Assembly: GCF_054482595.1 (NCBI RefSeq)
Contig: NZ_CM137008.1
DNA: 64,000 nucleotides
Strand: one strand, 5' to 3'
Part shown: piece after piece, positions 4,737 through 51,129 of the stretch
How the letters are laid out: each line of letters begins with the position of its first letter
Numbering within the stretch: position 1 is the first letter of the stretch
Translations under genes and position numbers: made by a program
The notes under the pieces: model-generated
The model's database searches: none
The model's input: only the letters and a program-made list of their open reading frames with translations
Told to the model about the DNA's origin: nothing

Positions 4737-5869
4737 GACTGAAGATTCTCCGCAAGCCATGATGCCAGCTCGCCCGGTGTCATGGCGGCTATTTGTGCGC
4801 CGACATTTACCAGCACCTGGGCCGTATCGTGGTCATAGCAAGGTGTTGCGGTGCTATCGAGCGCCGCCAGTCCCAGCACTTTGATGCCGCTCTGGACACA
4901 CTTTTTCACCTGATGCGTCAGTAATGATGATGAACCCCCTTCGTAAAAATCGCTCACGAGGATAATGACGCTTTTCGCTGGTTGTTCAATAAGTTGCCGA
5001 CCATATTCCACGGCACTGGCGATATTGGTTCCGCCGCCTAATTGCACTTTCATTAATAACTCTACCGGATCGGCAACGTCTGCCGTGAGATCAACCACGC
5101 TGGTGTCAAACGCCACCAGATGGGTACGAATGCCGGGTAACTGCCATAAACAGGCCGCCATCACCGCAGAGTGGATCACCGAATCGACCATCGAGCCGCT
5201 TTGATCAACCAGTAAGACCAGTTGCCATTGTTCGCTTTGGCGTTTAATGCGGCTGTTAAAGCGGGGGGATTCGATATACAACTTGCCGTGTTGCGGGTGC
5301 CAGTGTTGCAGGTTGGCGCGCAGAGTACTTTTGAAATCAAAGTTTCGCGCCAGTGGAATAAATGAGCGGCGACGGCGATCGCGGACACCAGAAAAAGCCT
5401 GACGAACTTCCTTTGCCAGTCGAGCCATAATTTCTTCAACAACCTGGCGCACTATCCGGCGGGCGGCAGCCAGTACTTCGGGATTCATCAGATGTTTGGT
5501 GTGCAAAACGGCGCGTAGCAGGCTTTCAGAAGGCTGCATACGTTCCAGCACGTCGAGATTCGTCACCACATCTTCAATGCCATAGCGCAGTACGGCATCG
5601 CTTTCCAGCCGCTCAATCACCTGTTGCGGAAACAGCGTGTGAATACTGTTGATCCACTCAGGGGGGGTGAGATTTGAGCCACCTAATCCACCGGAGCGTT
5701 CACCACGCTGGAGCCGTTCAGGATCGCGCCCATACAGCCACTCCAGCGCGTGGTCTATCTGCCGGGCGTTGTCATCCAGCCCACAAAGCGTCGTTTCTGC
5801 CGCTTCGCCAAGAATTAATCGCCAGCGTTGTAGCTCACGGGTGGTCAGAAGATCGTTCAGTTCAGACAT
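4733..5869 (-). CDS. yehP: YehP, von Willebrand factor A (vWA) domain protein (378 aa)
   Basis: MIDAS-type motif LLVDQSGSM followed by ...GGGTNIASAV... and ...ILVSDFYEGG; start ATG 5867-5869 lies inside the yehM 3' end (8-nt overlap). Confidence 0.8.
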   Translation of the reverse strand: MSELNDLLTTRELQRWRLILGEAAETTLCGLDDNARQIDHALEWLYGRDPERLQRGERSGGLGGSNLTPPEWINSIHTLFPQQVIERLESDAVLRYGIEDVVTNLDVLERMQPSESLLRAVLHTKHLMNPEVLAAARRIVRQVVEEIMARLAKEVRQAFSGVRDRRRRSFIPLARNFDFKSTLRANLQHWHPQHGKLYIESPRFNSRIKRQSEQWQLVLLVDQSGSMVDSVIHSAVMAACLWQLPGIRTHLVAFDTSVVDLTADVADPVELLMKVQLGGGTNIASAVEYGRQLIEQPAKSVIILVSDFYEGGSSSLLTHQVKKCVQSGIKVLGLAALDSTATPCYDHDTAQVLVNVGAQIAAMTPGELASWLAENLQS

Positions 5870-8141
5870 GGAAAACTCCCCAGTTTTGCAGCGATGCCAG
5901 TGCCTGCTGTTCGAGTTGTTGATGATGTGCAATGGCTTGTGGTGGACAATGCAACGGCATTTGCAGCGCCGAAACGGGAAGTTGCGCCAGTTGATAATGC
6001 TCAAGCACCTGATGCGCCAGCGTCCCGCGTTCTCGTGGTGGTAGCCAGGCCATCGCCGCGCGTAAATCGGGCAGGGCATTGATAAAATTGGCATCACTCA
6101 GTTGATTTAAATGACTGCTGAAACCGGCGATAAATGCCGGCTGACAGGCCAGTTGATGACGGGCTAATGCCAGCAAACCGTGCAGCGCTTCGCCGGATTG
6201 TGCCGGGGATAACTGCGCCAGCATCGTCAGCGCCGCTTCGGCACTGGCGTTGGGATGTTCCAGACGCATCAGTGCGCCAAGAGCCGCGCCGCGATCCAGC
6301 GCCGGGGCATGGATTGCCTGACTGCGTCGCTCCAGTAAGGCTACCGCCGCAGAAAGAGAAATGCCGGGGAGCTGCACACCGCTATGCAGATCGCGCAGGA
6401 TATGACACAACGCTTGCCAGCTATGCAGGTGAGCGTGAAACTCCTTTTCATCCGGTCTGCCGTTGGATTCACACAGCCACAGCGTGCGATCGATAGCCGC
6501 GCATAACGTCGTTTGTAATATCTGCGCGCCTTGCATACCGCTAATTTCATCCAGCCGCCATAAGGCATATAGCACTTCCAGCGCCTGGCCCATTTCGGCA
6601 AATTGATTTTCCTGGGCTATTAATAATGTGAGTTGTTCCAGTAATTGTTGACTGAAGGACGCCAGACCCGCTAACGCTGCCTGGCTAAGACATGTGGTGA
6701 TACTGCCGATTCCACCCGCGTCCAGCATATCGGCTTCTAATTTATGGCGTGCGGCTTCCTGGAGTGTGGCACCAAAGCAGGCGGCCTCAATCAATGCCGC
6801 ATGCTGGCTAAGCGGGCGGGTTAATTTCCAGCGTTCTTCACCGTTGCCTGCAAGTGTCAGTGTGCTTCCCTGCTGGCGTACAATCCCTGGGATCTCCAGT
6901 ATTGCCAGCCGATGTAACACCTGACTTTGCGCTAGTCCATTGGGGTTAAAGCGATTTAAGGTAAGCTCCGCCGGAAGAGAGATTGCGGTACGTTCCAGTT
7001 CGCAGGTGACATCTTTTGGCAGAGGCGGTTGTGGCGTAGAAGGGGCAAGTTTACCGAATCCGTCACCCGCTAATGTGTCTATCAACGTTAGCAGAATCGG
7101 ATCGGTGTCGGGATGAATAACTCCGCGATAGCTCCACGGCAACGGCGCGTTCAGGGCTTCTTTAATCAGCGAGCCTGCTATGGCATCCAGCCAGTCAGTG
7201 CGTAACGGTAGTTTATGTCCGCGCAACTGTGCCAGCGCCATCGCATGCAGATGAGCGGCAGCCATATCCGCGGTCGAAGCAGGCAAGTGGTGTTGGCGCA
7301 AACGGGTAAGAACCGTTTTTAGCAGTTGTTCTCCCGCCTGCTGTAAGCCCCACTGCCAGCACCAGCTTTGCCAGACCGGGGCAGGCATTCCTGAAAGGTA
7401 TCCTGCCAGCACATCAAGGCGCTTTTCACTGTAGGGTGTGAGATAACAACCTGTAACGGCATCTGCCAGCGAGGGCAATTCTGGCTTGTTAATGTCCTGC
7501 GGGCATTCGCGCCACATTTTTGCCAGTGCCGGAGCGTGCCAGCCACCGCAGACGACTAACACGTCGCCATTATTTTGCTGCACCGCCCATGCAATCCAGC
7601 GAGCCATAAAGGCTTCGCGCTGACGATTGAGTGCATCGCCGGGGAAATCGCCCCGCAGTTGGGCAAAATAGTGCGCCAGTGCAGAGGGTAATGCAGTTTG
7701 CTGGCTTTCATCTTCGAACAAGTGATCCCACAGGGTATCGCTGTTATCCATGCGGGTGGCACGCAGCAGCAAGGTCTGGCTTTCCTCTTGCGTATCAGGC
7801 GAATCGTCCTCTTCTTCACTCTGTGCCCAGCAAGGCAAATCGATGAAGTAAGTTTGTGCCTGAATACGACGAGCGGCTTGTAGCGCCTGCCACTCCGGCG
7901 AAAATTCAGCAAATGGCGTCCAGGCACCACGCCCGGGGGCTGCACCGTCCTGATACTGGCAATAACTGTAAATAGCTACCGGAAGCTGGTGGGCTAAAAA
8001 CAGTTCGTCTACCCGGTCATTAAAATCAGCCGGGCCTTCAATCAACACGTATCGTGGCCGCTGGCTTTCGATTAACGATTTCACCAGCCGGGCGCAGGCC
8101 GGACTATGATGCCGGATGCCGACAATTAACGGCTCGCTCAT
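5862..8141 (-). CDS. yehM: YehM, large uncharacterized protein (759 aa)
   Basis: Long ORF trimmed to MSEPLIVGIRHH (ATG at 8139-8141), 10 nt downstream of the yehL stop; no motif I can assign with confidence. Confidence 0.75.
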   Translation of the reverse strand: MSEPLIVGIRHHSPACARLVKSLIESQRPRYVLIEGPADFNDRVDELFLAHQLPVAIYSYCQYQDGAAPGRGAWTPFAEFSPEWQALQAARRIQAQTYFIDLPCWAQSEEEDDSPDTQEESQTLLLRATRMDNSDTLWDHLFEDESQQTALPSALAHYFAQLRGDFPGDALNRQREAFMARWIAWAVQQNNGDVLVVCGGWHAPALAKMWRECPQDINKPELPSLADAVTGCYLTPYSEKRLDVLAGYLSGMPAPVWQSWCWQWGLQQAGEQLLKTVLTRLRQHHLPASTADMAAAHLHAMALAQLRGHKLPLRTDWLDAIAGSLIKEALNAPLPWSYRGVIHPDTDPILLTLIDTLAGDGFGKLAPSTPQPPLPKDVTCELERTAISLPAELTLNRFNPNGLAQSQVLHRLAILEIPGIVRQQGSTLTLAGNGEERWKLTRPLSQHAALIEAACFGATLQEAARHKLEADMLDAGGIGSITTCLSQAALAGLASFSQQLLEQLTLLIAQENQFAEMGQALEVLYALWRLDEISGMQGAQILQTTLCAAIDRTLWLCESNGRPDEKEFHAHLHSWQALCHILRDLHSGVQLPGISLSAAVALLERRSQAIHAPALDRGAALGALMRLEHPNASAEAALTMLAQLSPAQSGEALHGLLALARHQLACQPAFIAGFSSHLNQLSDANFINALPDLRAAMAWLPPRERGTLAHQVLEHYQLAQLPVSALQMPLHCPPQAIAHHQQLEQQALASLQNWGVFHV

Positions 8142-10858: not shown

Positions 10859-13800
10859 TTAATGGAAAATGACGTCAGGTGCGCTTAACGCCTCACTCAA
10901 ATTAAACACATCAAGTTCGGCAAAAGTGACGGATTTATTGTCACGGTACACTCGAAGAGAACGGAAGCTCATTAACGCTTTGCTATCAACATTGTAGTGG
11001 TTAAAACCGGGTGAAAACTTAAGGACCAGCCGGTACTCGCCCAGGTCATAGACAAATGCATCCTCATAGCCTGACTCCCAGCCTTTGTATCGCATTCCCA
11101 TAAGCTGCCCAACGGTAGCGGATTTACCTTCCCAGCGAGTCAGGCTGTTACTGGTTGACTCGTCAGGTGTGAGCAGCACCGTGCGCCGCGCCAACTGGCG
11201 AAAAGGCGGCATAATTTCGTAATCGGCAAAAAGCTGTGCAAATTCACTGCGCATTTCTACTGTCATTTCTAACGGGTGGGCAATGCCAATCAGAGCGTCC
11301 GCAGGCAGGTCAATTGGCTCATCTTGCGCATTGCAGAACTCCCCCTCTGCGGCCACACGAAAGGCGTTGAGTAAACAACGCGGTTCATTTGCCGGATAAG
11401 CCCCCCATATTAATCGCTGGGTAACCAGACGGGTAAAGGGATGATTAACAAACAGAGAATGAAAATCTGCCAGCGACCAGCGTCGGGTGGTACGTAGGGC
11501 CGTTTCAAGACGCGGGAGCAGGTTTTTGCTCACCTGAGTAGCATCTTTTTTTAGCCCTTTTAGTCGGGCCAGTGCCTCGGGCGCTTTCAGTTGATCGTCA
11601 TCGGCACGCAACCGGGGAACACTTTTCTGGCGAACGTTTTGTTGATCAAAGATAACCGGGTTGAGGTTTTCATCGAAGCGAACGGTAAACTGCCGGGGAC
11701 CAAAATCAAAAATCAACGCCTGCGGATCATCAAGACCTAGTGTTGGGACTAATCTGTCCGCTAACTCTTCCTGGCTTAGCCCGCGATTTTCTGCGACCAC
11801 CTGAAGAAATTCCGCTGCGTTTTCACGTAATGAAGAGGATTTCGCCCGTTGTGATACATGATGCAGCTGTATCAGCGCCATATCATTATTCATCAAGGTA
11901 AGTATATTCAGACCAATGACAGCACGGGCAGATTTGCCTTCTTGTGGCCAGGCGAGGATCTGTGTCGTCAGATCCCGAGCCGTGCTTTCGTCACCAAAGA
12001 GACTTAACGCCAGAAATGCCCAGTTGTCTTTTGCGGGGGCACCAGCTTGTTGCCACGCAGTGAAGAGATCCCAGGCAAAAGCGGCCAGCGTTTGTGGCTG
12101 GCAAAACGTTTTCAGTTGTTCCAGACCGCTATAAAAACGTCCGCCCTGGGTAAAGCGCAGCATTTCGCCGATAATTTCCAGAGCGTCATCGGTAACAGGC
12201 TGATTATTAGTGATAAGTCGCGGCCTGGACCACATTGCCGGATGCCAGAAATCAGGGGCTTTTGGAATGCGTGCCGGGTAAATGTCCATTGGACCCTGTT
12301 TCAGTAAATGCTCCAGGGCAGGCCATACATCTGTACGCTGCCAGCGGTTTGCCACGGTTTGCAGCAATTCACCATGTCCCTGTTCGTAAAGTAAACGCAG
12401 GGCAAGTAATGCAGCTTCGCTATTATCGCTGGATTTGGTGAAGACAAGAGGGATAAGTGCAGTAGCCGTATGTTCCGGCCAATGTAAAATCCACTGGCGA
12501 GCCAGATCACGCTGCACCGCGAAACGTCGCCAGACGCGGGCAACGGGCAGGGCCAGTTCTGTTGCGCCAAAATTTAAAATTAACGGAAATGTTTCTTTTG
12601 GACGATGTAAAAAAGCCAACATCAGACCTGGTAGCGCATCCAACCCGAGGATACTGAGAAAATAGTCCTCACCCGCGAACAGATGTTTTTTCTCATTGAT
12701 ACGCAGCCAGAAGGTCAAAGCCATCTCACGCGGCAACTGTGCCAATAAATACAGGTTCCAGACACTCTTTTCCGGACGATAACGTGAGTAGTTGTCATTT
12801 TCCCATATGTTAATTAACGCTTCTATGTGACCGCTGCGGAGCGCCTGTTCTGCTAATTGTGCTTCCGGGGAGTTCCAGCCATTCAGGATCTCTTCAACCC
12901 GCCCCTGGTAGTAATGCCACTGAACAATGAGTGAATTGCGTGCAGCATCCAGTTTTCCGGGGAGTATATAATTCAGAAACAGCCATACATCATCCCCAAA
13001 ACCCAGTTCCTGTAATACAACTCGCCCACTTTTTTGTTCCATGCGTTCCGCAAGAGATTCCGTGCTGAAATAACGGGCAGACTCAGTGGAGGCAAGCCAC
13101 TCTTGTTCGCCTGGTTGCCAGTAAACTTGCGGGGTTAATTCGAGCGGTGCCAAATCAAGACGTGGAGCTGTCATTTTTTTCTTACTACGCCACGGTGGTG
13201 AAACGAGGATTTCAGGCAGATTGCTGTTATCGGTGCCATCAATAACCGGTTTGGGCGGTGCCAATAAATAACTATTCAGTACTGCCCGGGCTTGAGTACT
13301 TAACCACTGCATCACCTCTTCTGCCAGTTGTGGCTGCGATGCCATCAGCGTTTGTAACAGCGTACGCCAGTATTCATCGCGTGCTTTTTGCTGGGCAGGC
13401 AGCTTTTTGTCTTCGATGATTGGATAACCAAGGCGGGCTGGTGGTTCTTTTAACGCCAGCAGTTCTGCCAGTGCCGCGAGCGTCGCGTGGGGGAAGTTTT
13501 TACTGTATTTAGCCACACGTTGCAGGCTGGGTTTGTTTTTATCAGCCACCAGTAGCAAGGTGTGGATGACCTGCGGATGGTTAATTTGTACCAACAGACT
13601 GCCGCAATCTTCTTTATGGGCATACATCGCGAGGCGCGGAATGGCTGCCAGTCCTTGTTCGCGCAAAAGGGCGGCGCAGGCCGCGTAGCCGAAGTGGTTT
13701 TTTTGTGACATGTAGCTGGCTTCGCGATCGCTAAATACGTCCAGGCCCCAGTATCGTTCGAGTTTTTTTACCGCCGTATTATCAGTAGCAACGACCTTTA

Positions 13801-41039: not shown

Positions 41040-41185
41040 ACGGCACTACCCCGTAGGACGGATAAGGCGTTTACACTGCATCCGGCAACCTATGCCTGAT
41101 GCGACGCGGAAGCGTCTTATCATGCCTACATAGCACTGCCACGTATGTTTACACCGCATCCGGCATAAAAACACGCACACTTCGT
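41040..41185. repeat. REP/BIME cluster (several repetitive extragenic palindromes)
   Basis: tgcctgatgcgacgcggaagcgtcttatcatgcctaca plus gcatccggca-type units at 41080-41100 and 41150-41170. Confidence 0.7.
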
Positions 41186-41187
41186 TA

Positions 41188-41215
41188 CGGCTTCCCCCGG
41201 GAGGCCGTTTTTATG
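41188..41215 (+). terminator. Intrinsic terminator downstream of fbaB and the REP cluster
   Basis: cggcttcc-cccg-ggaggccg hairpin followed by ttttt. Confidence 0.5.
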
Positions 41216-41275
41216 CCTGTCATTCTGGATTAATTTTCATATTGTCGTTTTTGTGATCGTTATCTCGACATTTAA

Positions 41276-43475
<2,200 letters not shown>

Positions 43476-43484
43476 GGACGGTAT

Positions 43485-43937
43485 ATGACTAACCTGTTTG
43501 TTCGTAGCGGAATTTCTTTTGTCGATCGTAGCGAAGTTTTAACCCATATCGGTAATGAGATGCTCGCCAAAGGTGTGGTTCATGATACCTGGCCACAGGC
43601 ATTAATTGCCAGAGAAGCAGAATTCCCTACCGGGATAATGCTTGAGCAGCACGCCATTGCAATACCGCATTGTGAGGCGATTCATGCTAAGTCGTCAGCC
43701 ATTTATCTGTTAAGGCCAACAAATAAAGTTCATTTTCAGCAAGCGGATGATGATAATGACGTGGCGGTATCGTTGGTTATTGCGTTGATTGTGGAAAATC
43801 CGCAGCAGCAATTGAAACTTTTACGCTGTTTATTTGGCAAGTTACAACAGCCCGATATCGTTGAGACACTAATCACTCTTCCTGAAACTCAGTTAAAGGA
43901 ATACTTCACAAAGTATGTTTTAGATTCAGACGAATAA
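43485..43937 (+). CDS. gatA: PTS galactitol-specific EIIA (150 aa)
   Basis: Operon position and length; PTS EIIA-like. Confidence 0.9.
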   Translation: MTNLFVRSGISFVDRSEVLTHIGNEMLAKGVVHDTWPQALIAREAEFPTGIMLEQHAIAIPHCEAIHAKSSAIYLLRPTNKVHFQQADDDNDVAVSLVIALIVENPQQQLKLLRCLFGKLQQPDIVETLITLPETQLKEYFTKYVLDSDE

Positions 43938-43967
43938 ATCCCTCTGTAACAATAAAAAGGACTATTT

Positions 43968-44252
43968 ATGAAACGCAAGATTATTGTCGCTTGCGGAGGC
44001 GCGGTTGCGACCTCTACGATGGCGGCGGAAGAAATTAAAGAGTTGTGTCAGAGTCATAATATTCCTGTTGAATTAATCCAGTGTCGGGTTAATGAAATAG
44101 AAACCTATATGGATGGCGTGCATTTGATATGCACCACTGCCAAAGTGGAGCGTAGTTTTGGCGATATTCCATTAGTTCACGGCATGCCTTTTGTTTCTGG
44201 TGTCGGTATCGAAGCATTACAAAATAAAATTCTGACTATCTTACAGGGGTGA
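43968..44252 (+). CDS. gatB: PTS galactitol-specific EIIB (94 aa)
   Basis: Small EIIB with Cys near the N-terminus ([11 protein letters not shown]). Confidence 0.9.
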
Positions 44253-44255
44253 CCT

Positions 44256-45611
44256 ATGTTTTCAGAAGTCATGCGTTATATTCTCGATCTCGGCCCTACG
44301 GTGATGTTGCCGATTGTCATCATTATTTTTTCTAAAATATTAGGCATGAAGGCAGGCGATTGCTTTAAAGCGGGTCTGCATATCGGGATTGGCTTTGTTG
44401 GCATTGGCCTTGTGATTGGCTTAATGCTGGATTCCATTGGCCCGGCGGCGAAAGCGATGGCGGAAAATTTCGACCTGAATCTGCATGTGGTCGATGTCGG
44501 CTGGCCGGGCTCTTCACCAATGACCTGGGCGTCGCAAATTGCGCTGGTGGCGATTCCGATTGCGATTCTGGTTAACGTGGCGATGTTACTGACCCGTATG
44601 ACGCGGGTGGTAAATGTTGATATCTGGAATATCTGGCATATGACCTTCACCGGCGCGTTGCTGCATCTGGCAACCGGTTCATGGATGATAGGGATGGCGG
44701 GTGTGGTAATTCACGCGGCGTTTGTTTATAAGCTCGGCGACTGGTTTGCCCGCGATACCCGAAATTTCTTTGAGCTGGAAGGCATTGCAATCCCGCACGG
44801 TACGTCGGCGTATATGGGGCCAATTGCGGTGCTGGTCGATGCTATCATCGAGAAAATCCCAGGCGTTAACCGAATTAAATTTAGCGCCGACGATATTCAG
44901 CGCAAATTTGGTCCGTTTGGCGAGCCTGTCACCGTGGGTTTTGTGATGGGGCTGATTATCGGCATCCTCGCGGGTTACGATGTCAAAGGTGTATTGCAGC
45001 TGGCGGTAAAAACGGCGGCAGTGATGCTGCTGATGCCACGGGTGATTAAACCCATCATGGATGGTTTAACGCCCATCGCTAAGCAGGCTCGTAGTCGTTT
45101 ACAGGCGAAGTTCGGCGGTCAGGAGTTCCTGATTGGCCTTGATCCGGCGTTGCTGCTGGGACATACGGCGGTGGTATCGGCAAGCCTGATTTTTATCCCA
45201 CTCACCATTTTAATTGCTGTTTGTGTGCCGGGTAATCAGGTGCTGCCGTTTGGCGATCTTGCCACCATCGGCTTCTTCGTGGCGATGGCGGTCGCCGTGC
45301 ATCGTGGAAATCTGTTCCGCACCTTAATCTCGGGTGTCATCATTATGAGCATCACCCTGTGGATCGCGACGCAAACTATTGGTTTGCACACCCAACTGGC
45401 GGCTAATGCTGGGGCGTTAAAAGCCGGGGGTATGGTGGCTTCAATGGATCAGGGCGGTTCTCCCATTACCTGGTTACTGATTCAGGTTTTCTCCCCGCAA
45501 AATATTCCCGGTTTCATTATTATCGGTGCAATTTATCTGACCGGTATTTTCATGACCTGGCGTAGAGCGCGTGGCTTTATTAAACAAGAGAAAGTCGTTC
45601 TCGCAGAATAA
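44256..45611 (+). CDS. gatC: PTS galactitol-specific EIIC permease (451 aa)
   Basis: Polytopic membrane protein in the gat operon. Confidence 0.9.
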   Translation: MFSEVMRYILDLGPTVMLPIVIIIFSKILGMKAGDCFKAGLHIGIGFVGIGLVIGLMLDSIGPAAKAMAENFDLNLHVVDVGWPGSSPMTWASQIALVAIPIAILVNVAMLLTRMTRVVNVDIWNIWHMTFTGALLHLATGSWMIGMAGVVIHAAFVYKLGDWFARDTRNFFELEGIAIPHGTSAYMGPIAVLVDAIIEKIPGVNRIKFSADDIQRKFGPFGEPVTVGFVMGLIIGILAGYDVKGVLQLAVKTAAVMLLMPRVIKPIMDGLTPIAKQARSRLQAKFGGQEFLIGLDPALLLGHTAVVSASLIFIPLTILIAVCVPGNQVLPFGDLATIGFFVAMAVAVHRGNLFRTLISGVIIMSITLWIATQTIGLHTQLAANAGALKAGGMVASMDQGGSPITWLLIQVFSPQNIPGFIIIGAIYLTGIFMTWRRARGFIKQEKVVLAE

Positions 45612-45659
45612 TTTTTACCTGAGGGGGAGTTTATCCCCCCTTAACAATCAGGAGTTTTT

Positions 45660-46700
45660 ATGAAATCAGTGGTGAATGATACTGATGGTATCGTGCGCGT
45701 TGCAGAAAGCGTCATTCCTGAAATTAAACATCAGGATGAGGTACGGGTAAAAATTGCCAGCTCGGGCTTATGTGGTTCCGATTTACCCAGGATATTTAAA
45801 AATGGTGCACATTATTATCCAATAACGTTAGGCCATGAATTTAGCGGCTATATTGATGCGGTGGGATCCGGTGTTGATGATTTACACCCTGGCGATGCGG
45901 TTGCCTGTGTGCCGTTATTACCCTGTTTTACTTGTCCAGAGTGTTTGAAAGGGTTTTATTCCCAGTGCGCAAAATATGATTTTATTGGCTCGCGGCGTGA
46001 TGGTGGATTTGCTGAATATATTGTCGTTAAGCGAAAAAATGTCTTTGCTCTACCCACGGATATGCCTATTGAGGATGGGGCTTTTATTGAGCCGATTACC
46101 GTTGGACTGCATGCTTTTCATTTAGCGCAAGGTTGTGAGAATAAAAACGTTATTATTATTGGTGCCGGAACCATTGGCCTGCTGGCTATTCAGTGCGCTG
46201 TCGCGCTGGGAGCAAAGAGTGTGACGGCTATCGACATTAGCTCAGAAAAACTGGCACTGGCAAAATCTTTCGGTGCGATGCAAACATTTAACAGTAGCGA
46301 AATGAGCGCGCCGCAAATGCAGAGCGTTTTACGCGAACTGCGCTTTAATCAGCTTATCCTCGAGACGGCTGGCGTACCGCAAACTGTCGAACTGGCGGTA
46401 GAGATTGCCGGTCCTCATGCCCAACTGGCGCTGGTGGGCACGTTGCATCAGGATCTGCATTTAACATCGGCAACGTTTGGCAAAATATTGCGTAAAGAGC
46501 TGACGGTTATCGGCAGTTGGATGAACTACTCCAGCCCTTGGCCGGGGCAGGAGTGGGAAACGGCGAGCCGGTTGCTGACAGAACGTAAGTTAAGCCTGGA
46601 GCCATTAATCGCTCACCGTGGAAGCTTTGAAAGCTTCGCCCAGGCGGTGCGTGACATCGCTCGTAATGCCATGCCGGGCAAAGTGTTGCTCATTCCCTGA
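45660..46700 (+). CDS. gatD: Galactitol-1-phosphate 5-dehydrogenase GatD (346 aa, Zn-dependent MDR family)
   Basis: Zn-ADH-like motifs (GHEFSG; Cys cluster CFTCPEC); Rossmann GAGTIG. Confidence 0.9.
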   Translation: MKSVVNDTDGIVRVAESVIPEIKHQDEVRVKIASSGLCGSDLPRIFKNGAHYYPITLGHEFSGYIDAVGSGVDDLHPGDAVACVPLLPCFTCPECLKGFYSQCAKYDFIGSRRDGGFAEYIVVKRKNVFALPTDMPIEDGAFIEPITVGLHAFHLAQGCENKNVIIIGAGTIGLLAIQCAVALGAKSVTAIDISSEKLALAKSFGAMQTFNSSEMSAPQMQSVLRELRFNQLILETAGVPQTVELAVEIAGPHAQLALVGTLHQDLHLTSATFGKILRKELTVIGSWMNYSSPWPGQEWETASRLLTERKLSLEPLIAHRGSFESFAQAVRDIARNAMPGKVLLIP

Positions 46701-46705
46701 AACCG

Positions 46706-46735
46706 CGGGCCAGCGTGATGCTGGCCCGGTATTGT
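46706..46735 (+). terminator. Hairpin after gatD
   Basis: cgggccagc-gtgat-gctggcccg stem with a weak T-run. Confidence 0.45.
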
Positions 46736-46799
46736 GCAAAACAGATCATTCACCAATGGTCCCCCTTCGTTTACACTAGCTACAATTGAATATGGGTAA

Positions 46800-47579
46800 A
46801 TGACGATGAATTCATTCGAGCGAAGGAATAAGATCATCCAATTAGTGAATGAACAGGGAACCGTGCTTGTTCAGGATCTGGCGGGAGTATTTGCTGCCTC
46901 GGAAGCGACAATCCGTGCCGATTTGCGCTTTCTCGAACAAAAAGGCGTGGTTACGCGCTTTCATGGCGGTGCGGCGAAAATAATGTCCGGTAATAGTGAA
47001 ACCGAGACCCAGGAAGTCGGGTTTAAAGAGCGATTTCAGCTCGCCAGCGCGCCAAAAAACAGAATAGCGCAGGCGGCAGTCAAAATGATCCATGAAGGGA
47101 TGACCGTTATTCTCGACAGCGGAAGTACCACAATGCTTATCGCCGAAGGATTAATGACCGCTAAAAATATCACGGTGATTACCAACAGTCTCCCGGCAGC
47201 GTTTGCCCTTTCCGAAAATAAAGACATTACTCTGGTCGTCTGTGGTGGCACGGTCCGCCATAAAACGCGCTCGATGCATGGTTCCATTGCCGAGCGTTCA
47301 TTGCAGGATATTAATGCCGATTTAATGTTTGTCGGTGCTGATGGTATTGATGCGGTTAATGGTATTACGACCTTTAATGAGGGTTATTCCGTTAGCGGTG
47401 CGATGGTCACAGCCGCTAATAAAGTGATTGCCGTTCTCGATTCATCGAAATTTAACCGTCGCGGTTTTAATCAGGTACTGCCAATCGAAAAAATTGACAT
47501 TATTATTACCGATGATGCTGTATCAGAGGTGGATAAACTGGCATTGCAGAAGACACGGGTGAAATTAATTACGGTGTAG
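46800..47579 (+). CDS. gatR: DeoR-family repressor GatR, uninterrupted (259 aa; alternative start at 46806)
   Basis: N-terminal HTH (RRNKIIQLVNEQGTVLVQDLAGVFAASEATIRADLRFLEQKG) and a DeoR-type C-terminal domain; a single continuous ORF. Confidence 0.85.
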   Translation: MTMNSFERRNKIIQLVNEQGTVLVQDLAGVFAASEATIRADLRFLEQKGVVTRFHGGAAKIMSGNSETETQEVGFKERFQLASAPKNRIAQAAVKMIHEGMTVILDSGSTTMLIAEGLMTAKNITVITNSLPAAFALSENKDITLVVCGGTVRHKTRSMHGSIAERSLQDINADLMFVGADGIDAVNGITTFNEGYSVSGAMVTAANKVIAVLDSSKFNRRGFNQVLPIEKIDIIITDDAVSEVDKLALQKTRVKLITV

Positions 47580-47590
47580 TATTGTTCTGT

Positions 47591-47627
47591 ATGCCGGATA
47601 AGGTATTTACACCGCATCCGGCATTAC
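47591..47627. repeat. REP-like palindrome between convergent gatR and yegS
   Basis: tgccggat-aaggtatttacaccgca-tccggca inverted repeat. Confidence 0.5.
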
Positions 47628-47660
47628 GGATTCTCCCTGGTTCAAGAGAGAATAGTTTGA

Positions 47661-48560
47661 TTAACGCAATAATGGACAATCTGGTGGTAATCGACAACGC
47701 AACGCCGCCGGAAGTATTTCAATATGAAAGTTTTGTCCGCTCAACGGTTCGCCATCAAGATTAAAAGTGATTTCGTGTGGGGCTTGTATATCAAACCACG
47801 ACGAAGCGCCTTCGATAATATTCGGGTTATCTTCGTCAGATTTTAAGGTTGATACGAGAGCCGGAAGAATTTCATCGCCGGTAAAAATGCGCAGTTGCAG
47901 CAAGCCATCGTTAATTAACGCGTTCGGACACAATTGCTGACCGCCACCGGCCTGACGCCCGTTACCAATACCAATGACCAGGGCGTCACCTTGCCAGTGA
48001 AAGTTTTCACCGCGGATTTCACAACGGTCCGGTTGCAGAGTATCCATGCGCATTAAGCCATGAATGATGTAAGAGACGCCACCCAGCGCGGCTTTTAATT
48101 TTTCCGGCGTTTCTGTGGTAATACGCGTCCCAAATCCGCCTGTCGCCATATTAATAAAACAGGTTTGTTTGTTGACCTGCGCCATATCTATCGCAATGGC
48201 GTTACCGGCAATTGCCAGTTTCAGCGCCTTATCCAGTGCCTCAGGAATCCCTACACTGGTGGCAAAATCATTGGCGGTTCCTAATGGCAAAATTCCCAGC
48301 GCGGGTATGTCATCCCCCTCACACTGAATCAACGCCGTAGAAACTTCATTAATGGTGCCATCGCCACCACCGGCAATCACCGTTGCGACGCCCAACTTCC
48401 GGGCCTCCTCTACATATCGTGCGGCATCGCCTTTCTCCCAGGTGACCCGCACATGGATCGTCATTCCTTCCTCACGCAACAGCATAATTGCTTCGCGCAA
48501 GGGTAGATTGTCAGTACTTTTGCCATTAAGAATCAGTAAGCTGGCGGGAAATTCTGCCAT
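47661..48560 (-). CDS. yegS: Lipid kinase YegS (DAGK_cat family, 299 aa)
   Basis: Diacylglycerol-kinase catalytic-domain glycine-rich motifs (GGDGT). Confidence 0.9.
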
Positions 48561-49292: not shown

Positions 49293-49450
49293 GAATATTT
49301 TTTGGTAAGCGTCAAACATGCGCGTTCTGGTTGTGCTTAGCCGGAACCTGTGCGAGCACGATGCCGTTACGTGAAAGGCATCGTGCTATGAAGGGAGATT
49401 CTATCGATGTGGTCAATGGAAGACGGTGACCAGGGATAGGGCTTATGCAT

Positions 49451-49537
49451 AAAAAATAAGCCCGTGTAAGGGAGATTACACAGGCTAAGGAGGTGGTTCC
49501 TGGTACAGCTAGCATTTTATGGGTTATGTTTTTCAGC
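49451..49537 (-). ncRNA. cyaR: CyaR (RyeE) small regulatory RNA
   Basis: Minus strand reads GCTGAAAAACATAACCCATAAAATGCTAGCTGTACCAGGAACCACCTCCTTAGCCTGTGTAATCTCCCTTACACGGGCTTATTTTTT, matching recalled CyaR including its terminator. Confidence 0.85.
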
Positions 49538-49621
49538 GAAACGGATGATAACCTTAATAAATGCAGCTGTATGTGATCGGTTTCTAAGAATTTTCCATCC
49601 GGGAAAAATAATCGAAATTAA

Positions 49622-50983: not shown

Positions 50984-51129
50984 AATTCTCTCGTTCTGAT
51001 GACAGGTCAGATCCGCTTCACCTGATGAAGCGGTTAGGGGAGTGCCCCCACTTTAAGGGCGGGCATTGTAGCGCTGTGGGGGGATCTGGTAAAGCGCCGG
51101 ACGCCAACAACCCACGCCCGGCATCGTAA

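Follow-up and report, generated by a model that had tools for sequence, protein, structure and literature searches.

An uninterrupted gatR repressor gene directly downstream of gatYZABCD in an Escherichia coli chromosome, and candidate operator boxes for its product

The gat locus and the gatR reading frame

The window analyzed here, a single stretch of 64,000 nucleotides, is part of an E. coli chromosome, and its gatR region matched 5,109 of 5,426 complete E. coli genomes at 95 to 100% identity. The genes are arranged in the order fbaB-gatYZABCD-gatR-yegS, an order that is the same in K-12, HS, CFT073, and the annotation of AR434. The gene called gatR occupies the position that identifies it, between gatD and yegS and directly 3′ of gatYZABCD, and is followed by yegS on the opposite strand at 47661-48560. 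The genes of the locus are as follows.

41330-42184, plus strand: gatY, full-length open reading frame
42213-43475, plus strand: gatZ, full-length open reading frame
43485-43937, plus strand: gatA, full-length open reading frame
43968-44252, plus strand: gatB, full-length open reading frame
44256-45611, plus strand: gatC, full-length open reading frame, 451 amino acids
45660-46700, plus strand: gatD, full-length open reading frame
41330-46700, plus strand: the regulated operon gatYZABCD, from the open reading frame listing
46806-47579, plus strand: gatR, encoding a 257-amino-acid DeoR/GlpR-family repressor of the galactitol operon, from the open reading frame, Pfam domains, RefSeq boundaries, and protein identity

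A single open reading frame spans 46800 to 47579 on the plus strand, with an ATG start, 259 codons followed by a stop, and zero internal stops in both the open reading frame listing and the raw sequence. Pfam indicated an N-terminal DeoR HTH domain (HTH_DeoR, PF08220) at residues 8 to 60 (E = 1.3e-16, 60.5 bits versus a cutoff of 21) and a C-terminal sensor domain (DeoRC, PF00455) at residues 85 to 238 (E = 1.8e-51, 174.7 bits versus a cutoff of 31.8). Because both DeoR domains were found, we conclude that gatR is a real gene rather than a chance open reading frame, and the listing, the raw sequence, and the domains bear out the first-pass annotation of an uninterrupted 259-codon DeoR-type frame. 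Moreover, a sequence search of solved chains aligned the C-terminal structure of DeoR (PDB 7l6l) to GatR residues 83 to 254, within the sensor domain (E = 1.4e-11); the same search found no structure of GatR itself or of a GatR complex with DNA.

The frame assigned to gatR by the first-pass annotation, 46800 to 47579, stood, but its start probably did not. RefSeq records of AR434, HS, and CFT073 give gatR as a coding sequence of 774 nt, or 257 amino acids, that begins at the second ATG, which is position 46806 of the window. The sole Shine-Dalgarno-like run, GGG at 46794-46796, leaves a gap of 3 nt to the first ATG and of 9 nt to the second, and because of that difference in spacing, the start at 46806 is favored over the start at 46800. 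On the RefSeq boundaries and the position of GGG, we consider 46806 the likelier start of gatR.

The six gat structural genes each had the length of the corresponding RefSeq coding sequence in AR434, HS, and CFT073, and from 41330 to 47660 the comparison with HS gave a lone indel, of one base, at 45635 between gatC and gatD. We conclude that the regulated operon is intact too, because the lengths were equal to those in RefSeq and the only indel relative to HS fell within a spacer.

The regions flanking the gat genes varied among strains. Identity to AR434 was 100% for the gatR query and approximately 99% across the 16 kb around it. Between yegQ and yegP, AR434 carries a ParD/ParE toxin-antitoxin pair (locus 12375-13154) and CFT073 carries a different four-gene insert, while approximately 21 bp occupy the spot in the window (51074-51096), like HS; the yegQ-yegP spacer looks like a small hotspot for integration. 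A P2-like prophage remnant, containing a late control D fragment and ogrK, lies between yegR and yegQ in K-12 and is absent from the window, in which yegR is followed directly by yegQ (49293-49621), as in HS. REP/BIME-type repeats were located at approximately 41045-41170, in the fbaB-gatY spacer, and at 47583-47625; the sequence GTTTACAC(T/C)GCATCCGGCA occurs twice in the spacer, along with inverted counterparts, and a related REP copy, GCCGGATAAGGTATTTACACCGCATCCGGCA, lies directly 3′ of the gatR stop. An IS200C copy is present in the fbaB-gatY spacer of CFT073, and the window has no IS200C there. Farther afield, Gilliamella spp. of the bee gut have the arrangement gatABCD-gatR, with a GatR that is 59% identical to E. 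coli GatR, and with gatY downstream of gatR and no adjacent gatZ the cluster is rearranged.

Disrupted and functional alleles of gatR

The interruption of K-12 gatR by IS3E has been textbook material since 1996, the year in which Nobelmann and Lengeler reportedly described the gene in its uninterrupted state. The MG1655 record annotates gatR (b4498) as a pseudogene split into a 299-nt and a 475-nt fragment with IS3E (1,258 bp) between them, which supports the first-pass statement that an IS element breaks the gene in K-12. Three nucleotides separate IS3E from the second fragment in that record, consistent with a 3-bp target duplication. Alignment with the K-12 fragments, which the first-pass annotation had proposed as a check, was performed on the two fragments joined (774 nt) and indicated no indel and 12 nucleotide differences from window gatR, with one amino acid difference, I196V.

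The B lineage carries a different lesion. In NEBExpress (locus 1843-2606), IS1 is inserted within gatR and is flanked by a 9-bp target duplication, CGATTTCAG. Because the element is IS1 in B and IS3E in K-12, we conclude that the two main laboratory lineages lost GatR independently. Both insertion sites have equivalents in the window.

47031-47039, unstranded: equivalent of the IS1 site, target CGATTTCAG, unoccupied in the window, from the NEBExpress annotation and junction sequences
approximately 47102-47104, unstranded: equivalent of the IS3E site, after gatR nucleotide 299 (approximately codon 100), unoccupied, from the MG1655 annotation and fragment lengths

The consequence of the K-12 insertion is a constitutive gat operon (PMC5850726, PMC4072538, PMC3045373, PMC9189660, and a 2026 bioRxiv preprint), and these sources confirm the first-pass statement on K-12, namely, that disruption of gatR is the cause. 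One passage of PMC5850726 names the K-12 element as IS1, and the MG1655 record gives it as IS3E. The IS1 loss in the B lineage fits the de novo IS insertions in gatR that arose during evolution in the mouse gut (PMC5850726). The MG1655 record also marks gatC as a pseudogene (locus 4922-6279), and the reference K-12 gat locus has two lesions, gatR::IS3E and gatC.

GatR of the window was nearly identical to proteins with experimental support. HS GatR and the GatR reconstructed from K-12 are identical to one another, and the window protein matched them at 256 of 257 residues, the lone difference being I196V. Moreover, direct translation indicated that window GatR and CFT073 GatR agree at 257 of 257 residues despite 23 synonymous differences, and a single GatR accession, WP_001367074.1, is common to AR434 and CFT073. 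When HS gatR, amplified with gatD and yegS primers, replaced the pseudogene of MG1655, the gat operon became regulated, and in mice, constitutive derivatives of the regulated strain then arose when IS elements inserted anew into gatR (PMC5850726). Silencing of gatR by CRISPRi in vivo was strongly beneficial in CFT073 and LF82 and gave no signal in MG1655 (2026 bioRxiv preprint); the phenotype in CFT073 and LF82 is the behavior of an active repressor. Expression of gat was also lower in NCM3722, a K-12 strain in which gatR is undisrupted, than in MG1655 (PMC3045373). We conclude that the gene and the operon are intact in the window and that the encoded protein is that of the active CFT073 repressor, one residue from the HS allele.

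The window has Val at residue 196, where HS, K-12, Enterobacter ENT03, and two Gilliamella orthologues have Ile. By comparison of these alleles, V196 is a conservative, lineage-wide variant. Genes at least 99% identical to window gatR were present in approximately 360 complete genomes, which suggests that the window carries a normal natural allele.

The frequency of uninterrupted gatR was determined in the 5,426 complete E. coli genomes with a 281-bp query that spans both the IS3E and IS1 sites, the gene being scored as uninterrupted when at least 80% of the query matched in one place. The central part of gatR was uninterrupted in 4,725 genomes, split or truncated in approximately 382, and absent from approximately 319, in a collection that is enriched for laboratory strains and with BLAST counts that detect large insertions only, not frameshift or nonsense alleles. 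A 960-bp query returned uninterrupted gatR in 4,756 of the same genomes, and the gap of approximately 31 fits IS1-split genomes of the B lineage, which the longer query would merge into one place. Split cases in evenly spaced samples of the ranking were K-12-like laboratory strains (O16:H48, approximately 4.63 to 4.66 Mb) and one B derivative. Because 4,725 of 5,426 genomes had it uninterrupted, intact gatR is the norm of the species. We conclude that window gatR is in the wild-type, ancestral, and usual E. coli state, shared by approximately 9 of 10 sequenced genomes, and that K-12 is the exception. The noteworthiness that the first-pass annotation implied for an intact gatR was not upheld by these counts; intact gatR was already known, and there is nothing new in the gene.

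Candidate promoters and operator boxes

The fbaB-gatY spacer contains the fbaB terminator (41187-41208, with a T-run), and the following elements were assigned between it and gatY.

41265-41294, plus strand: predicted sigma-70 promoter of gatYZABCD, with −35 TCGACA (41265-41270), an 18-nt spacer, and −10 CATTAT (41289-41294), from a consensus scan
41249-41270, unstranded: putative CRP-like site TTTTGTGATCGTTATCTCGACA, read from the sequence
41243-41250, plus strand: candidate GatR box TGTCGTTT, upstream of the CRP-like site, from motif matches and cross-genus alignment
41302-41319, minus strand: candidate tandem GatR boxes, TGTCGTTT at 41312-41319 and TTTCGATT at 41302-41309, 10 nt apart, from the motif and alignment

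The promoter scan returned one site versus 0.9 expected by chance, which is weak alone, and the position of the predicted promoter is conserved within Escherichia and Pluralibacter. From that position, we infer that the gatY transcript would start at approximately 41301 to 41303. The CRP-like sequence TTTTGTGATCGTTATCTCGACA has a perfect TGTGA half and matches at 3 of 5 positions in the other, and its center falls approximately 41.5 bp upstream of the predicted start. Its GAT-N-ATC-C core is positionally conserved across genera, in which the TCACA half-site is perfect, and the gatY promoter is predicted to be CRP dependent.

Loci for comparison were fetched with one degenerate DNA pattern for gatY, which was too permissive, with class II aldolases of Firmicutes and Vibrionaceae among the matches listed. 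Seven loci among the matches listed were kept, being gat syntenic or closest in GatY: a divergent Escherichia (E69), Pluralibacter, Enterobacter asburiae, Enterobacter ENT03, Kosakonia cowanii, Citrobacter youngae, and Superficieibacter electus. The regions upstream of gatY in all seven aligned with that of E. coli, and CTTTCG/CGAAAG boxes were positionally conserved in three places: two boxes (ACTTTCGAAACTTTCATTTTT) upstream of the CRP-like site, one box around the gatY −10 element, and a pair downstream of the −10 element, TTTCGAA...AAACGAAAG. In the window, TGTCGTTT at 41243-41250, with a further TTTTCA nearby at 41234-41239, aligns with the CTTTCA/CTTTCG boxes of Enterobacter, Kosakonia, and Citrobacter. 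The minus-strand pair of TTTCGATT and TGTCGTTT spans the predicted transcript start up to the ribosome-binding site and aligns with TTTCGAA...AAACGAAAG in five other genera. The motif TKTCGWTT, which was defined after the sequence had been viewed, occurred 11 times in the 64-kb window versus 11.5 expected, a total not above chance, such that the clustering of 3 of the 11 matches within the 77 bp from 41243 to 41319 is no more than descriptive support.

The first-pass annotation had placed the candidate GatR operator between 41230 and 41320. That interval does cover the predicted promoter and all of the candidate boxes, but in doing so it takes in the entire promoter region. Assignment of 41230-41320 as the GatR operator region is best described as plausible, and the alignment suggests that it could be refined to the candidate boxes. 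A literature search, which did not reach the primary GatR papers, found no published description of GatR operator boxes.

Two other repeats were considered. The 13-nt sequence AAAACA[A/G]ATCATT, present upstream of gatY (41275-41287) and upstream of gatR (46739-46751), was rejected as an operator because it includes the polymorphic position 41284 and is not conserved across genera. A 13-nt inverted repeat (I4, 41238-41250 and 41312-41324), considered as a hairpin or palindromic operator, resolved into two opposed copies of TGTCGTTT.

Three single-nucleotide differences from K-12 and HS were present in the gatY promoter region, at 41269, 41284, and 41324. Position 41269 is C, giving a −35 element of TCGACA where K-12 and HS have TCGATA; position 41284, next to the −10 element, is C where K-12, HS, CFT073, and E69 have A; and position 41324 is G, which puts GTG in place of an in-frame ATG two codons before gatY. 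Of these three bases of the window, only the C at 41269 is shared by CFT073 and the divergent E69. As TCGACA is closer to the consensus than TCGATA, the first change points to a promoter that would be stronger, not weaker.

Two elements were assigned between gatD and gatR.

46703-46729, plus strand: GC-rich hairpin downstream of gatD, GGGCCAGC / GCTGGCCC, lacking a T-run, read from the sequence
46749-46777, plus strand: candidate gatR promoter, with −35 TTCACC (46749-46754), a 17-nt spacer, and −10 TACACT (46772-46777), read from the sequence

The candidate gatR promoter was below the threshold of the consensus scan, and its hexamers are weak, with matches at 4 of 6 positions each. From this promoter, the gatR transcript is predicted to begin at approximately 46784. 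A CTTCGTTT box at 46765-46772 lies within the spacer of this promoter, and Enterobacter ENT03 and Kosakonia have, 5′ of their gatR genes, TTCACC-N17-TAAACT / TTACACT with a CCTTCGATT box and additional CTTTCG boxes. The box in the promoter spacer and the conservation of the arrangement in Enterobacter and Kosakonia suggest possible autoregulation of gatR. The scan called no terminator-like site after gatD, and the hairpin there would be at most a weak terminator, so that transcripts from the gatY promoter may also run on into gatR. Between gatD and gatR, the sequence departs from that of HS and K-12 at only one base, 46781, outside the hexamers.

Probable GatR control of the gat operon and comparison with related repressors

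Because window GatR matches that of CFT073 exactly and that of HS at all residues but one, and because gatYZABCD is without a frameshift, it can soundly be inferred that the gat operon would be under repressor control in the window strain. We put at roughly 90% the probability that window gatR is a wild-type E. coli gatR that keeps gatYZABCD off until a galactitol-derived inducer is present. In the likeliest mechanism, GatR would act as a DeoR-type repressor in oligomeric form that would bind CTTTCG-type boxes (TGTCGTTT and TTTCGATT) flanking and overlapping the putatively CRP-dependent gatY promoter, at approximately 41234 to 41320, and would probably also bind the CTTCGTTT box in its own promoter. 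Bound GatR would block RNA polymerase and hold gatYZABCD off, and a galactitol-derived ligand on the C-terminal sugar-phosphate sensor domain would cause its release. Sensors of the DeoR family usually take a phosphorylated intermediate, and the inducer of GatR is probably of the same kind.

One alternative is that GatR of the window is a tight, poorly inducible repressor and that V196 and the promoter variants keep gat largely silent, which we consider improbable. The window protein is that of CFT073, and the CRISPRi study suggested that CFT073 and LF82 do not de-repress gat in the mouse gut, the benefit of silencing being read there as failed de-repression (2026 bioRxiv preprint); moreover, residue 196 was Ile in all other orthologues examined. 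The change from Ile to Val is very conservative, however, and approximately 360 genomes carry gatR at 99% identity or more, while the result in mice may reflect low galactitol in that model. The −35 element is also nearer to consensus in the window than in K-12 (TCGACA versus TCGATA), which would argue against silence. A gatR with an intact frame and an inactive or unexpressed product, leaving the strain gat constitutive like K-12, is very improbable: the sequence by itself would be compatible with a missense change that abolishes function or with a gatR promoter that is dead, and the promoter hexamers are weak (4 of 6 each) and went uncalled in the consensus scan, but we rate this possibility low because the protein is that of CFT073 GatR, which has repressor activity, and because the gatD-gatR spacer is one base from that of HS and K-12, the HS gene having restored regulation when amplified with gatD and yegS primers (PMC5850726).

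We therefore favor an ordinary, inducible wild-type GatR in the window strain. It is doubtful that V196, the TCGACA −35 element, and the C at 41284 would together set a regulatory set-point different from that of K-12 and HS, with tighter repression and a stronger induced level; if they did, the difference could bear on how strains compete for galactitol in the gut, an environment in which gat regulation is known to be strongly selected. As a discovery, intact gatR is of small value, since a specialist would expect it in E. coli. For annotation, the window strain is to be treated as gat regulated, unlike MG1655, and the same point is relevant when gut colonization data from constitutive K-12, in which gat loss-of-function mutations sweep, are extended to natural isolates. 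From the cross-genus alignment comes a concrete and inexpensive hypothesis for the operator boxes that GatR may recognize.

GatR of the window resembles GatR of E. coli generally in its locus, gene order, length of 257 amino acids, and pair of DeoR domains. The gene is intact also in HS, CFT073, LF82, NCM3722, and EC3132, whereas b4498 of K-12 is a pseudogene; relative to the K-12 reference, window gatR is without IS3E and carries the 12 nucleotide differences and I196V. The sole solved chain matched, that of the E. coli DeoR C-terminal domain (7l6l), belongs to a distant member of the family. The closest characterized paralogue is AgaR of the aga N-acetylgalactosamine operons, with 38% identity over 254 amino acids and the best NCBIfam match. 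Window GatR scored 232.7 bits in the AgaR equivalog model (NF040755), below the cutoff of 260, and is a paralogue rather than AgaR itself. AgaR also governs a tagatose-bisphosphate-aldolase/PTS cluster (kbaZ and kbaY) but differs in locus and substrate. The agaR-kbaZ region of K-12 is filled with CTTTCGTTT-type boxes (CTTTCGTAAAACTTTCGTTTCATTTCGTTTT, ATCTTTCGTTTT, and AAACGAAAG) that resemble the gatY boxes, and AgaR was reportedly footprinted on such repeats by Ray and Larson in 2004; at the gat locus of E. coli, the box sequence has drifted to TGTCGTTT. SrlR (GutR) is a DeoR/GlpR-family repressor of a hexitol PTS that scored near AgaR, window GatR reaching 227.8 bits in the SrlR equivalog model (NF007753), below the cutoff of 350. 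It belongs to another operon and another locus than gatR, and its loss likewise results in a constitutive operon, that for glucitol.
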